Assembly (NCBI GenBank): GCA_965228735.1
Contig: OZ245838.1
Span: forward strand, 2,880,001 to 2,944,000
Source: Planctomycetota bacterium
Lineage (GTDB): Bacteria > Planctomycetota > UBA1135 > UBA2386
Length of the DNA stretch: 64,000 nucleotides
Reading direction: 5' to 3'
The notes beneath the pieces were generated by a model. It worked only from the letters and a program-made list of their open reading frames with translations. It was not told the origin of the DNA and made no database searches. Both the position numbers and the translations under genes were made by a program. Positions 31,049 to 37,518 of this stretch are shown here, piece after piece. Every line of letters begins with the position of its first letter. Within the stretch, counting starts at the first letter, position 1.

Positions 31049-33418
31049 TCACTTCACGAGCGGCACTTCGAGGCGCTGGGTACCCTCGAACGTGTTGCCG
31101 TCGAAGATCCAGTCCTGGAAGTAGAGCGTCATCGGATCGAGGAACTCGGGGAGCGCGATGGTGTAGGTCACCTGCTGGCCGAACTGGAACGGCAACGTCG
31201 CGAGGTAGGCCGGGCCGAAGGCGTCCACGAGCAGGCGGCAGCCGGGCGTGACCGCGGGATGGATGACGGGCGCATCGTGCGGCGCGAACGCGACGACGAC
31301 GAAGTGGCCGGCCGGGGCGTTGTTCGTGACCCGCAGGTAGTTGAACTCGGCGCCGATCTGCTGATTGCCGATCCACGCGATCGTCGCAGGGCTGCAACCG
31401 AAGCCGGACGTCGTGTCCGGGGCCACGGCATCGTAGGTGAGCGTGTGCCCGTAGAGCGGATTCGTCGCCTCGTCCGACCCGTACGCCATGAGCACGTCGT
31501 TGTGATCGTTGTCGAAGACGCACGCCGGCCCGACGAGGTTGTGACCGCTCGGATCGAAGATCTTGACGTACGACTCGGTAGCCTCGCCGTTGTAGCCGAC
31601 GCGCGAGTAGTACGCCGAGCCGAGCCCGGCGTTCACCCAGCGGTAGGTCGCCACCCAGTGCGAGTCGTCGTTCGTGTCGAACGCGAGGCCGCTGACCCGC
31701 CAGGAGCGCAGGTGAGCCGCCTGCAGCAGCACCGGCGGCCGGTCGGCACCCGCATCGGGCAACGTCGCGCCATGCGACCAGTCGAACCGCTCGAGACGAA
31801 CCGAGTAGCCGAGCGGCGACTGCGTCTTGCCCGGCACCTGCGACAGCCAGTTGGCCGCGAACACGACGGCGTAGCGCCCGTTGTTGCCTTCGACGATCGG
31901 CTCGAGCAGGTGGTGGGTCCCGGCCGCGGAGAGGTCGCTGCGCCACGTGCCGAGCGACATCGAGCCGTCGTTGCCGACGCGCCGCGCCACGAGGTCCCAC
32001 CCGTCACCGTTGATCTGGTTGTCGAACTCCTGGAGCGCGCAGACCCAGCTGAATGCGTTGCCGCCCTCGGCGACCTTGTTGACCGACGGCCGCTCGCAGT
32101 CACGCGTGACGATGCCGCGGATCGTGAACGGCGAGCCGAACGTGCCGTCGGGGCCGGACGCGGGCGCGAAGAGCACGCCGCGGACCTGGCTCGTCGGCGT
32201 GTTGTGGAACGGATTGCCGCCGTGGTCGTCGGTCTGGAACACGACGAGCGCTTCGTCGCCGCTGCGGTAGGCCTCGACGCCGCCCACGTCGGGCCGCCAG
32301 TCACTCTGACCGACGATCCGCGGCAGGACCTCGTAGTTGGTCGCGAGCACGGTGTCGCCCGACGCATGCGCGTGGCAACGGACGCCGGCGTACGGCGTCG
32401 TGGCGTTGCGGAACAACCGCTCCATCGCGATCACCCAGTGGTCGACGCCGCCGACGAACGCGCACGACGGCGAGTTGGTGTCCCAGATGTTCGAGATGTC
32501 GGTGTAGACCGTGGTCGACCCCGAGTGGTCGTCATCGGTGAGCCGCGCGTAGAGGTCGCCGTCGAGCGCCGAGACGTGGCGCACGTAGGCGAACATCACG
32601 TTGTGCGCCGTCGCGACATCGTCCCGCGCGATGTCGCACGCGGTGAGGTGCGCGCCCGACGCGATCTGGACGCGCGTCAGCAGCGGATCGACGACGACGG
32701 GCAGCACAGCACTCTCGAGCCAGCTGCCCGGCACCCGCAACGTGATCTCGCCGGCCTCGTAGCCGGTCGTGAGCGGCAGCGTCTGCCCCGCTGCATCGAT
32801 CGCGTAGGCCTTGCCGTACTGCGTGATCGCGTTGCCCTGGTCGTCGGAGAACGTCAGCGCCTGGTGCGCCGGCGGCACGTCGGCAGCGACGAGGTCGGAA
32901 GTGATCGCGCCCGTGATCACGAGATCGCCGACCACCGGCAGCCGCGTCACGACGAACGTCTGCTCGAGCCCTTCGGCGAGCACGTCATAGGCCTCCGTGA
33001 TGCCGCCGAAGCGGTATTCGACCCGATGATCCGTATGGACCCGGCCAGGCTGGCCCGTGGCGAGTTCGACCCCACCGATCCGCGCCGACGTCGTGCGCCA
33101 CGACAGCGGCTGGTTGCGCGGGTAGTCCTTGCCGAGGTACGGCACGAAGGTCATGTCGCCGTGGAACGAAGCCTTGTAGTCCGCACCGGCGGCCCAGAGG
33201 CCATAGTCGAAGCCGCCATCAGCCGCAGCCGTGTGGACGGGCGTGACCGCGGCGGTCAGCGCCGAGCTACTCGCGGCCATCGTGGCCAGCGTGGCGTCCG
33301 CGGCGGGCGCCGGCCCGGCTGCGAGCGCCGTGCCATCGGGGTTCTGGGCGAAGGCCACGGGCAGCAGCAGGCCGCTGCCGAGCACGAGGGCCGGGATCGA
33401 GATGCGGAGGGAGTTCAT
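31049..33418 (-). CDS. Large secreted beta-rich protein with C-terminal GxGC...LYFQ domain
   Basis: Signal peptide (LLLPVAFAQ); ITEAYDVLAEGLEQTF..LPVVVDP N-domain; propeller-like repeats; C-terminal GFGC..GCRLLV..IALP..LYFQ. Confidence 0.8.
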   Translation of the reverse strand: MNSLRISIPALVLGSGLLLPVAFAQNPDGTALAAGPAPAADATLATMAASSSALTAAVTPVHTAAADGGFDYGLWAAGADYKASFHGDMTFVPYLGKDYPRNQPLSWRTTSARIGGVELATGQPGRVHTDHRVEYRFGGITEAYDVLAEGLEQTFVVTRLPVVGDLVITGAITSDLVAADVPPAHQALTFSDDQGNAITQYGKAYAIDAAGQTLPLTTGYEAGEITLRVPGSWLESAVLPVVVDPLLTRVQIASGAHLTACDIARDDVATAHNVMFAYVRHVSALDGDLYARLTDDDHSGSTTVYTDISNIWDTNSPSCAFVGGVDHWVIAMERLFRNATTPYAGVRCHAHASGDTVLATNYEVLPRIVGQSDWRPDVGGVEAYRSGDEALVVFQTDDHGGNPFHNTPTSQVRGVLFAPASGPDGTFGSPFTIRGIVTRDCERPSVNKVAEGGNAFSWVCALQEFDNQINGDGWDLVARRVGNDGSMSLGTWRSDLSAAGTHHLLEPIVEGNNGRYAVVFAANWLSQVPGKTQSPLGYSVRLERFDWSHGATLPDAGADRPPVLLQAAHLRSWRVSGLAFDTNDDSHWVATYRWVNAGLGSAYYSRVGYNGEATESYVKIFDPSGHNLVGPACVFDNDHNDVLMAYGSDEATNPLYGHTLTYDAVAPDTTSGFGCSPATIAWIGNQQIGAEFNYLRVTNNAPAGHFVVVAFAPHDAPVIHPAVTPGCRLLVDAFGPAYLATLPFQFGQQVTYTIALPEFLDPMTLYFQDWIFDGNTFEGTQRLEVPLVK

Positions 33419-34756: not shown

Positions 34757-34876
34757 GCACCGGCATCATGGGAGGTCGGGATCTGTTTTCCACGTTCTGC
34801 AGCTCGACCTCGACGCCCGCCGCCGGAGCGGGATAGATTCCCCTGCCCCCATGCAGACGATGTCGGAGCTCAGCGC

Positions 34877-36214
34877 GTGAAGATCGCGATCCTCGGCGGT
34901 GGAATCTCCGGCACGGCGCTCGCGCGGATGCTGGCGGGCGACGGCCACGACGTGGCCGTGCTCGAGCGCAGCGAACGCGCTGGCGGGCTCTGCCAGAGCA
35001 GCCGGTTCGGCGACTTCACGTTCGACAACGCCGGCGGGCACATCCTGTTCTCGAAGAACCAGAAGGTGCTCGACTGGCAGCTCGAGCGCTGCGGCGGCGA
35101 CGACGGCACGGTCCGCACCGAGCGCAACACGAAGATCCGGTGGCACGACCGCTGGGTGCCGTATCCGTTCGAGAACGGCGTCGGCCACCTCACGAAGGCG
35201 GCGATCGTCGAGTGCATGGCCGGCTACGTCGAGGCGTTCGCCGACCGGCGCGCCGGCGCGGAGTGCCCGCCCAACTTCCACGACTGGGTACTGTGGCGCA
35301 TGGGCGAGGGCTTCGCGAAGCACTTCATGCTGCCCTACAACGAGAAGATCTGGGAGTGCGACCTGCACCGCCTGTCGAGCGGCTGGGTCGCGGGCCGCGT
35401 TCCCGAGGCGCCGATCGAGGACATCCTGAAGTCCGCGATCGGCCTCGACACCGACGGCTACACGCACCAGTCGGTCTTCTGGTTCCCGAAGCACGGCGGC
35501 TTCGAAACGCTCGTCCGCGGCACCATCGCGGGCGGCGGGTTCGCGCTCCACACGGGCGTCGCGGTCGAACGCGTCGAACGCAAGGGCAACGGCTTCGCGG
35601 TGAACGGCGAGGACTACGACCTCGTGGTCAACACCGTGCCGCTGCCGCTCATCGAGGGCGCGATCGCCGACATCCCGGACGAGGTGCGCAGCGACATCCG
35701 CGCGCTCGAACCGATCTCGCTCGTCAACCTGATGATCGGCGTGAAGCTCGACGAGCCGCTGCCGCCGCTGTCGTGGGTCTACCTGCCGTTCCCCGAGCAG
35801 GGTCCGGTCAACCGCGTGACCTACTACAGCAACTACGCGCCGGGGAACGCGCCGGCCGGACACGGCTCGTTCCTCGCCGAGGTCACCCACCGCGGCGACC
35901 TGCAACCGGACCGCAAGTGGGCGCGCGAGGTCACCGCGGCGCTCGGCCGCGCCGGCATCCTCGAACCGGACAACGTCGTGCTGCTCGAGTGGTGCGACAA
36001 CACGTTCGCCTACATCGACCAGGACCTCGAGTTCGCGGATCGGATCGGGCGCGTCCGCGGTTGGTTCGACACGAGCGGCTACATCACGTTCGGGCGGTTC
36101 GGGCGCTACGAGTATCACAACAGCGACCAGTGCATCGCGCGGGCCATGGAGGTCGCCGAGCACGTGCGGGAGATCGCGGCGAGCGGGGCCCCGGCCGCGC
36201 CCGTCTTCGCCTGA
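34877..36214 (+). CDS. FAD-dependent oxidoreductase, UDP-galactopyranose mutase/protoporphyrinogen oxidase-like
   Basis: KIAILGGGISG, E...AGGLC, FDNAGGHILFS, VPYPFEN, PYNEKIW, FWFPKHGG, GRFGRYEYHNSDQ. Confidence 0.85.
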   Translation: MKIAILGGGISGTALARMLAGDGHDVAVLERSERAGGLCQSSRFGDFTFDNAGGHILFSKNQKVLDWQLERCGGDDGTVRTERNTKIRWHDRWVPYPFENGVGHLTKAAIVECMAGYVEAFADRRAGAECPPNFHDWVLWRMGEGFAKHFMLPYNEKIWECDLHRLSSGWVAGRVPEAPIEDILKSAIGLDTDGYTHQSVFWFPKHGGFETLVRGTIAGGGFALHTGVAVERVERKGNGFAVNGEDYDLVVNTVPLPLIEGAIADIPDEVRSDIRALEPISLVNLMIGVKLDEPLPPLSWVYLPFPEQGPVNRVTYYSNYAPGNAPAGHGSFLAEVTHRGDLQPDRKWAREVTAALGRAGILEPDNVVLLEWCDNTFAYIDQDLEFADRIGRVRGWFDTSGYITFGRFGRYEYHNSDQCIARAMEVAEHVREIAASGAPAAPVFA

Positions 36215-36309
36215 GCGACCGCGGCCGCGTGACGCTCGACCGGATCCCGATCCGATTCGTCGAAAATTCGTTTCCACTACGGAACCCCGGAACCCGACGC
36301 CGCCGTCCA

Positions 36310-36570
36310 AGGGGTGTTCCGCGTGGACCATGCCTCTGCGCGGAGCATTCCTGTCTCCAGGATCCCCAGACGAGCATCTTCCGGACGCCGAGACGGCATC
36401 GCGAATCAGAGGGGTCTGTTCCAGGGTGAAAGCCCGAGGTGCAGCTGGCCAGTCAGCGAGTGGCCAGCACGTCTCGCGCTCGTTCCCGGCGGGTTCTGGA
36501 GGCAGGGTCCATTTTACTCTCAGTTCTCATGCAGCAGCGGAGTGCGTTCGTAAGAGCGTGCTCCGCGCTC
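36310..36570 (+). ncRNA. Candidate structured non-coding RNA of unrecognised class
   Basis: 18-bp stem 36310-36327/36335-36352 (5 G.U); 16-bp long-range stem 36350-36365/36491-36506 (3 G.U); GGGU-GAAA-GCCC; GCUGGCCA/UGGCCAGC; GCGGAGUGCGUUC-GUAA-GAGCGUGCUCCGC. Confidence 0.6.
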
Positions 36571-37170
36571 ATTTCTGGCGACTCCGACCGAACCGGAGCC
36601 GCCCGCTGCGGCCCCGGCCGCCCCCATGGGACGGGGCGCACGACCCGACTCGGGCTGCCGCGCGGGCAAATCGCAGCGGAAAAAGCCCGTGATTGGGTGC
36701 GCCATTCGGTCCCCCTGTTCGTTACCAGAGGGCATCGTGCACTATGGTTGTGCATCCGGAAGGCCCGTTGCGGACGAAGTTCGCGCAGGTCGAGCGCCGT
36801 CACCACCACCACCCGCGGCGTTCTCCGGTCGATTCCCTGACACTTTGACCCCGACCCCGACACGAACGGGGCGGGCCGGACCCGGCGGACCCGAGGTTCC
36901 CGAGAACCCTGGGTTCCGGAACACCCTGGTTTCAGGGTTCGGCCCGACGCACTAGACTTTCTTCCTGGCGTTACGCCGCTTCCGCCGCCGGTTCGCCGGC
37001 GACCAGACCACCCCAATGCCCGACGTCGTGCCCCACCACTGCACGTCTCGGCCGAGCGCGCTGGCTCGGCCCGGGGGCGGACTGGCCGGACGCGGGCTGC
37101 CGCAATGCCGATCCACCCGAGCGGCGCCCCCCTCGAGGGCACCGTCTGCACCCTGGGAGGGGGTGCTCTG

Positions 37171-37518
37171 ATGCCGGAACCGACGATCGAACAGGCCCGG
37201 ATCGAACCAATCCCGAGCGGTCGCATCGACCGCAACCAGGTCCGCGCCGACTGGGCGCGGGACGGCTACAGCTGCGAACTCTGGGTCGATCCCCCGGAGC
37301 GTGTGTGGAGTGACTTCGTGCACGACGCCGACCTGCGGCTGTTGCTGCTGCAGGGCTCGATCCAGGTCGCGCTACCGGACCGGACCGTGCAGCTGACGAC
37401 CGGCGACGAACTCGACGTCCCGGCGCACACCCGCTTCACGATCCGTCACCTCAGCGACCAATCGGCCCGCTGGCTGCACGGCTACCGCCAGCCCGCGCGC
37501 ACCACCCGCGCGTCGTGA
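37171..37518 (+). CDS. Cupin-domain protein
   Basis: WVDPPERVWSDFVH..LLQGSI..GDELDVPAHTRF; GGGAGG RBS. Confidence 0.8.
   Translation: MPEPTIEQARIEPIPSGRIDRNQVRADWARDGYSCELWVDPPERVWSDFVHDADLRLLLLQGSIQVALPDRTVQLTTGDELDVPAHTRFTIRHLSDQSARWLHGYRQPARTTRAS

Follow-up and report, generated by a model that had tools for sequence, protein, structure and literature searches.

Identification of a stand-alone RNA gene in an intergenic gap

The gap between an FAD-dependent oxidoreductase gene and a cupin gene in the 64 000 nt stretch of planctomycete DNA analysed here (the window) raises the question of whether it specifies an RNA in its own right and, if so, what such an RNA might do. A sequence-only reading had seen a structured orphan RNA candidate at this place; our analysis predicts a stand-alone ncRNA gene of ∼265 nt on the + strand at ∼36313–36576, the parts of which are listed in Table 1. 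In relatives, a rough median of 278 nt separates the − 10 box and the U run. The source genome (7.19 Mb, one contig, 93 % complete) carries a single copy, and a conserved ORF is absent from the RNA, as the distance from the AUG of P1 to the core changes by numbers of nucleotides that are not divisible by three. With regard to expression, 12 of 24 runs are listed on record as RNA and four were examined as assembled contigs. Two RNA-library runs yielded one contig each (100 % identical, spanning 36327–36506 and 36329–36503), and two further RNA-library runs yielded contigs of relatives that piled on the RNA core; as these contigs come without strand, level or a DNA-run control, they speak to presence in RNA libraries only.

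In most relatives the oxidoreductase gene lies upstream of the RNA on the same strand, and in some it lies downstream and convergent. The genes downstream of the RNA differ between relatives, as does their strand, and one genome carries the RNA apart from the oxidoreductase gene altogether. Cis action on the neighbouring genes, as a leader or as a 3′ element, would explain why the RNA nearly always adjoins the same oxidoreductase gene; however, the changing side and orientation of that gene, the varying downstream gene, the copy located elsewhere, and the RNA's own predicted promoter and terminator make this the least probable of the explanations considered. The leader that had been kept as a fallback in the sequence-only reading does not fit an RNA that ends at a terminator of its own and is followed by differing genes, and a riboswitch or leader was rejected on finding that the RNA does not keep to one place upstream of related genes. 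What remains of the gap (window 36600–37100) holds GC-rich hairpins without a coding-like ORF, which are not conserved in the relatives examined. On the minus strand at 31049–33418 the window also contains a gene for a 789 aa protein that matches nothing in Pfam and apparently carries a signal peptide.

Table 1. Predicted parts of the RNA gene and its neighbours (positions within the window)
Feature	Position	Strand	Remarks
FAD-dependent oxidoreductase gene	34862..36214	+	Pfam Amino_oxidase; synteny marker outside the RNA
Predicted ECF-type promoter	36281..36310	+	GGAAC (− 35), 18 nt variable spacer, CGTC-NN-A (− 10)
Predicted transcript	36313..36576	+	Ends inferred from promoter and terminator, not mapped
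P1 hairpin	36316..36346	+	Two-sided changes in 9/9 core pairs
P1 loop CCAUGCC, displaying CAUGC	36328–36334	+	5′ CAUGC in 60/82 members; mean unpaired probability 0.91
5′ pyrimidine linker	36345..36350	+	GYUCUYU in relatives (66/79 members)
P2/P3 long-range stem	36349..36507	+	36349–36365/36491–36507 and 36371–36375/36478–36482
P4	36389–36394 with 36471–36476	+	Pair probability 0.77 in source copy
P5	36396–36400 with 36438–36442	+	Pair probability 0.72 in source copy
AGA-GGGG-UCU hairpin, tip of P6 (36403–36421)	36408..36417	+	Predicted seed; 81/82 members, a count that leans high because the census was selected on promoter plus core or P7 and P9
P7 hairpin	36424..36435	+	Stem kept; loop exchangeable (GAAA, GCAA, longer, UUCG)
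P8 hairpin	36444..36468	+	Loop usually with GCGA; two-sided changes in 9/9 pairs
3′ CU-rich linker	36511..36536	+	Second CAUGC at 36528–36532; 3′ CAUGC in 58/82 members
Predicted intrinsic terminator	36537..36576	+	13-pair hairpin, weak U run
Cupin gene	37105..37518	+	∼530 nt past terminator; downstream partner not constant among relatives

A predicted fold supported by covariation

The + strand folds at − 150 kcal/mol with z = − 5.25 (0/200 shuffles), compared with z = − 2.65 (2/200) for the minus strand. Covariation and a search of Rfam had been named in the sequence-only reading as ways of checking the candidate, and both support a new ncRNA class. In a plain MAFFT alignment of 58 sequences, two-sided changes were found in 49 of 64 pairs and 87 % of alignment cells pair, a result reached by none of 500 shuffles and to be compared with 37–47 % for slid controls. 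From the 5′ end, the fold runs through a hairpin, a pyrimidine linker and a long stem to two nested three-way junctions with P6, P7 and P8; 3′ of the long stem come a CU-rich linker and then the terminator. Two-sided changes occur in 16/16 and 3/5 pairs of P2 and P3, respectively, and compensatory changes in few sequences support P4 and P5, which close the two junctions (36389..36476). Stems vary in length among members, and a hairpin plus U run forms the predicted terminator in most relatives.

Several of these helices had already been drawn from the sequence alone. The 5′ hairpin of 18 pairs, five of them G.U, is present where it was placed, although its outer third is peculiar to the source copy and 36350–36352 had been used both for it and for the adjoining long-range helix, which itself exists in the sequence with its 16 pairs and three G.U. 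Among the inner helices the GAAA-capped hairpin holds, but GCCG-AGA-CGGC and CGAGGUG/CGUCUCG have pair probabilities of ∼0.2 and ∼0.06 in the source copy and are outcompeted by P4 and P5, the alignment-supported alternatives. The last hairpin is found with its GUAA cap and corresponds to the predicted terminator, but the GUAA loop is not conserved. More generally, the GNRA loops that had been taken as a key sign are exchangeable, relatives having UUCG or longer loops in their place. P7 was rejected as a T-loop or tRNA-elbow binder, its loop being replaced by UUCG in several members. The most conserved element of all, the hairpin at 36408–36417, had been overlooked.

Outside the paired core, CAUGC recurs in 75 of 82 members at the 5′ end, the 3′ end or both, mostly unpaired, and the count for its 3′ copy compares with 3–19 for six control 5-mers. 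An extra GCGA-capped hairpin in the 3′ linker, P9, occurs in 30/82 members and is missing from the source copy. The source copy is also among the 13/79 members without a GYUCUYU match, its 5′ linker being degenerate. In relatives this linker resembles the first 7 nt of the boxA consensus as given in the accessible part of 10.1101/091223; the boxA tail is absent after it in the main clade, and the boxA-like linker is lost in the source copy. Additional seeds or binding sites for proteins may lie in the CAUGC loops, the CU linkers and the GCGA loops. Intergenic hairpins with a CAUGC loop also exist elsewhere in the source genome (G000:C1, minus strand, near 1837649, 627097 and 4723088), some with U tails; as a class they are not enriched there (13, against 5–18 for control 5-mers).

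A fold of this kind could also belong to a compact structural or catalytic RNA resembling raiA, in which the GCGA loops would dock on the invariant stem and the linker would form a pseudoknot with the core. GYRA loops are known to dock on such stem pairs, the variable positions of the linker would face G in the proposed pseudoknot, and the RNA is single copy, near-universal in its family and built on nested three-way junctions. We nevertheless consider this improbable: only 10 nt are near-invariant, stem lengths vary, loops are swapped for UUCG, one member is coreless, a mutual-information scan gave no pseudoknot covariation and the source copy is without the linker. The ribozyme that had been listed as another fallback does not fit an RNA of which only 10 nt are near-invariant, these being missing in one member.

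The RNA is absent from Rfam 15

No Rfam 15 family matched at gathering score anywhere in the window; scanning 36150–37200 returned two miRNA chance matches only (E 0.86 and 8.2), and 13 relatives' loci likewise gave only chance matches. By these comparisons the RNA, conserved and covarying, is a new family, absent from Rfam 15, which was one of the possibilities raised in the sequence-only reading; motif lists in the supplements of RNA-discovery studies, and families newer than Rfam 15, could contain it. The earlier failure to match it to tRNA, tmRNA, RNase P or SRP RNA was borne out, none of these being present in the window and each being found elsewhere in the genome. There was also no match in the source genome to raiA (RF03072) at E up to 10. 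A bacterial Y RNA was rejected, with no Ro60/TROVE gene (PF05731) found in the 93 % complete genome and no tRNA-like call at the RNA. In the same genome CsrA (PF02599) and Hfq (PF17209) were not found. Pairing to rRNA was rejected too: the only matches were of 7 nt, in 23S and the 23S–5S spacer, at chance level.

A further fallback of the sequence-only reading was a 6S-like RNA. With its size, rod-like middle and alternative-sigma promoter, the RNA might be a second 6S-like or Ms1-like species that binds RNA polymerase. It has, however, no match to 6S (RF00013) and its fold is branched, without a central bubble, whilst a 6S-like rod sits elsewhere in the genome (28 bits against a 46-bit cut-off, E 0.0023); as such, this identity is highly improbable. 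That rod (L023:1490–1710, minus; G000:C1:1961557–1961747) has a central bubble and z = − 4.8, and is likely a divergent 6S RNA.

Annotated sRNAs are few outside model phyla, according to the available text of PMC9029176, and the sole planctomycete motif in the table of PMC2864571, a source seen in part, is a predicted cis-regulator. Within the Planctomycetota literature covered, which leaves most subscription journals outside its scope, we found no base-pairing RNA described together with its sigma factor and targets; nothing relevant on a planctomycete structured RNA or ECF sRNA appeared there either, supplements being outside this scope.

The RNA is near-universal in one planctomycete family

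The RNA was present in 41 of the 42 sampled genomes of one uncultured Planctomycetota family. BLAST matched 20 of 36 same-family genomes (two falsely) and none of 24 others. A covariance model gave matches in 37/42 family genomes and in 2/108 others, of which one is a tRNA and the other a contig that is probably a contaminant; four of the five family genomes that it missed hold a divergent copy adjoining the oxidoreductase gene, bringing the count to 41, and in the fifth the oxidoreductase gene lies at a contig end. A model of the core found nothing in 131 other-family genomes of the class or in 148 of the phylum, and since it also missed one known divergent member, the other-family result is to be read as not found rather than absent. 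No copy was seen at 17 oxidoreductase loci of other families. In a pattern scan of a named genome collection, 59 stretches were obtained, 52 with titles naming a planctomycete taxon, one with a title naming the CL500-15 lineage and one a chance match; all eight metagenome matches were members with the same neighbours. False matches were removed before counting (L019, L021, L022, L056, which lies within a gene, and G140, a tRNA).

A number of individual records deserve mention. Two copies in G083 are on contigs shorter than 1 kb that carry a family-type oxidoreductase, and probably represent contamination. A full copy with planctomycete-type neighbours occurs in a record whose title names a gammaproteobacterial genome (L039), probably a mis-binned contig. 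Phage copies were considered and rejected, the one case being a chance match of the pattern in a dense tRNA array on a phage contig (L207:1360–1850), next to an ORF that was judged sirtuin-like by eye.

The promoter places the RNA in a probable ECF regulon

The predicted promoter just upstream, likened to an ECF-type promoter in the sequence-only reading (GGAAC-N18-CGTC, 36281–36307), is conserved at 75 of 78 loci that were selected through the RNA core alone; 73 have this form and two a GAAAC-N17 form. The three loci without it are a chimeric contig, counted twice, and a chance match. In that contig (L013/L052), coding-like sequence replaces the 5′ third of the RNA over the first 150 bases, probably an assembly chimera.

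Across 41 family genomes, a stricter promoter pattern had 77 matches, compared with 25 for a reversed control. When 67 promoter-pattern loci were examined, six were found, besides the RNA copies, to lie directly before related ECF sigma genes in six relatives. Several other matches stand ahead of genes for peptidases or signal-peptide proteins (assigned by eye and with Pfam), and some are chance matches within coding sequence. In the source genome the RNA ranks first with a weight matrix, though one built from the RNA's own relatives. For the closest ECF gene of the source genome, the N17 form of the promoter stands just before the GTG start, and the gene is followed by a candidate anti-sigma factor with an HxxxCxxC motif, a hydrophobic segment and no library match. 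At this locus (L238; G000:C1:4461300–4463800, minus), where the ECF gene occupies the region 4462809–4463336, the start is apparently leaderless, and an unnamed signal-peptide protein is encoded as well. Promoters of the AAC/CGT type and autoregulation are typical of ECF sigma factors, and an sRNA arm exists for RpoE, according to the accessible part of PMC8103513. From the promoter motif before the ECF gene in six relatives, it is likely that the RNA belongs to an autoregulated ECF regulon.

A G-rich hairpin loop as a candidate seed

The loop of the hairpin at the tip of P6 has a predicted unpaired probability of 0.76, and opening it would cost 3.7–5.1 kcal/mol. All members found by the model or by synteny keep the seed 10-mer, which provides independent support for its conservation. 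One promoter-found member (L231; G375:C54, after 2809, minus) is without the seed hairpin whilst retaining promoter, linker, P7, P9 and the CAUGC loops at both ends; the FHA gene of the same genome is also without a seed-complement site.

Counting both strands, the seed 10-mer occurs four times in the source genome; outside the RNA there are thus three places, and at two of them a complement immediately precedes the ATG of a gene for a kelch-repeat protein that apparently has a signal peptide. Three likely housekeeping candidates were drawn from start-region lists and their orthologues compared: an FHA gene, a gene for a PMT-family membrane glycosyltransferase-like protein and a POT transporter gene. 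The FHA gene, found in 37/40 family genomes, heads a PilM/type IV pilin operon, which in the source genome (L359; G000:C1:1403000–1414788, minus) comprises FHA, PilM-like, TPR and type IV pilin/T2SS-like genes, with the FHA start at 1414788. Of the 8-mers in the 45 nt upstream of the FHA gene, the two with the highest conservation (11/29 and 6/29) each complement the seed exactly. The first of these occurs in 12/37 family genomes (11/36 without the source), three deep-branching ones included, as opposed to 1/22 of other families; Fisher's test gave p 0.008 (10/28 vs 1/22), with genomes that are not independent, and only one of 500 shuffled seeds matched as often. The site ends 6–12 nt before the AUG, and 2/29 FHA start regions have a Shine–Dalgarno match. 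A second motif before this gene, CGCACCGG, occurs in 5/29, in genomes without the seed complement. For the PMT-like gene, whose start in the source genome lies at G000:C1:6788881 (plus), a 7-mer seed complement was found in 7/18 other family genomes, with five of the seven sites within 4 nt of a start codon and one of 500 shuffles matching as often; the single non-family orthologue is without the complement. The POT transporter was dropped as a third target, its site not being conserved. Complementary sites for the seed are partly conserved in two of the three candidates. For three control genes, of which 68, 47 and 19 upstream regions were compared, no 8-mer complementary to the seed was found. 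Predicted net binding of the 13 nt seed region, with both partners opened, is about − 10 to − 14 kcal/mol for five source-genome sites.

Other counts argue against reading these sites as targets. The 10-mer complement stands before an ATG in 13/63 family genomes and in 23/137 others, no family-specific excess, and such a perfect site was rejected as a family-wide signature; none of the six other family loci examined was a real gene start. For the 7-mer against a permuted control, the odds ratio was 1.25 (p 0.015 pooled, p 0.15 without one genome), and only 11 of 36 genomes exceeded the control for a 7-mer before ATG. The exact FHA site is missing in 25/37 family genomes, most of which have the RNA; C-rich spacers are common before start codons in the source genome; and the control genes, too, share 8-mers among close relatives (12/68 and 9/47). 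An apparent bias of predicted targets towards signal-peptide or secreted proteins vanished with 745 reliable starts and was rejected as a start-calling artefact. The 7-mer complement in 5/50 promoter-downstream regions (4/300 shuffles) is only a hint, being one of 12 patterns tried.

These observations need to be weighed against a different role, that of an ECF-induced protein decoy or scaffold, whose CAUGC, GCGA, CU-rich and GGGG motifs would bind one or more RNA-binding proteins in the manner of CsrB/RsmZ, the complementary mRNA sites then being incidental or another factor's. The movable, mostly unpaired placement of CAUGC would suit a protein site, as would its identity with a common start-codon context of the source genome, and the seedless member retains CAUGC, P7 and P9. 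Moreover, a conserved mRNA complement for CAUGC was not found (1/30 at the PilM-like start). Yet each motif occurs only once or twice, none of CsrA, Hfq and Ro60 was found, and a decoy leaves without reason that the top FHA 8-mers are exact seed complements; we therefore regard it as possible, but rather unlikely. Alternatively, the G-rich loop might capture C-rich sRNAs rather than mRNAs, as an RNA sponge; RosA of Bacillus is a sponge that captures small RNAs, and the G-run loop and multi-motif layout would fit. The conserved complements, however, sit at protein-gene starts, and the other perfect complements in the source genome include no C-rich partner RNA, which makes a sponge very improbable.

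A proposed envelope-stress circuit

Taken together, our best reading is that the RNA is an Hfq-independent base-pairing regulator, like MicA and RybB in role, unrelated to them in sequence and far more structured. We predict that, transcribed by the ECF factor, it likely represses the translation of envelope mRNAs by pairing through its GGGG loop, and assign this mechanism a probability of roughly 0.55. A signal would free the ECF factor from its anti-sigma factor, whereupon it would transcribe its own gene, genes for secreted proteins and the RNA. The exposed GGGG loop would then nucleate on CCCC and the 3-pair stem unzip, yielding 8–13 pairs within ∼16 nt before the start codon, the stiff stems keeping the seed exposed without Hfq. 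Such pairing would block 30S loading; the 30S footprint covers the region around the start codon where the sites fall, and it is from their position within it that blocked initiation is deduced. With 30S loading blocked, new envelope and pilus assembly would slow.

A bolder and quite unlikely extension is a chaperone-free, multi-domain RNA whose purine-rich loop pairs, on envelope mRNAs, where the missing Shine–Dalgarno sequence would lie, whilst its loop-displayed CAUGC, which resembles a start codon, and its CU-rich arms would contact the ribosome or some initiation protein, so that it would hand over ribosomes to chosen mRNAs in trans, or withhold them, under ECF stress.

Returning to the base-pairing regulator, the analysis brings together a family-wide RNA, a candidate sigma factor, a candidate anti-sigma factor, a candidate seed and two conserved candidate targets, so that an entire stress circuit becomes open to testing in a phylum whose envelope is unusual. 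If the reading is correct, a large folded RNA with a G-loop seed acts on start regions that have no Shine–Dalgarno match.

Comparison with known regulatory RNAs

In its size, single copy, multi-junction fold and proposed trans action the RNA is akin to the raiA motif RNA (RF03072; ∼200–250 nt), which is also often close to its upstream gene, as described in the accessible parts of PMC12968392 and PMC5737381. The raiA motif RNA has an end-closing P1, two pseudoknots and a conserved linker (PMC12968392, in the part available), whereas the 5′ and 3′ ends of our RNA do not close one P1, and the conserved linker and pseudoknot covariation of raiA are absent. With the decoys CsrB and RsmZ it shares short, loop-displayed motifs in movable positions; it differs in having no GGA repeats and only one or two copies per motif.

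Closer in the proposed mode of action are 6C RNA, RsaE and RoxS, loop-seed sRNAs of Hfq-independent bacteria, in which a homopolymer-run seed in a hairpin loop likewise nucleates pairing at start regions. The polarity would be reversed here, with a G-run loop acting on C-rich sites of start regions in which a Shine–Dalgarno match is mostly missing, and there is no Rfam match.

Closest in the proposed circuit are MicA, RybB and MicL of E. coli. These are short RNAs, whilst ours has ∼265 nt, ten helices and no Rfam match; its seed lies in an internal hairpin loop, Hfq was not found, and its predicted targets are pilus and glycosylation genes, where theirs are porins. In common with them it has an ECF-type promoter with a GGAAC − 35 element, and its proposed role is likewise that of the repressing arm of an envelope regulon (PMC8103513, in the part available). 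If this likeness of role is real, the sigma-plus-sRNA envelope logic of E. coli would have arisen again without Hfq.
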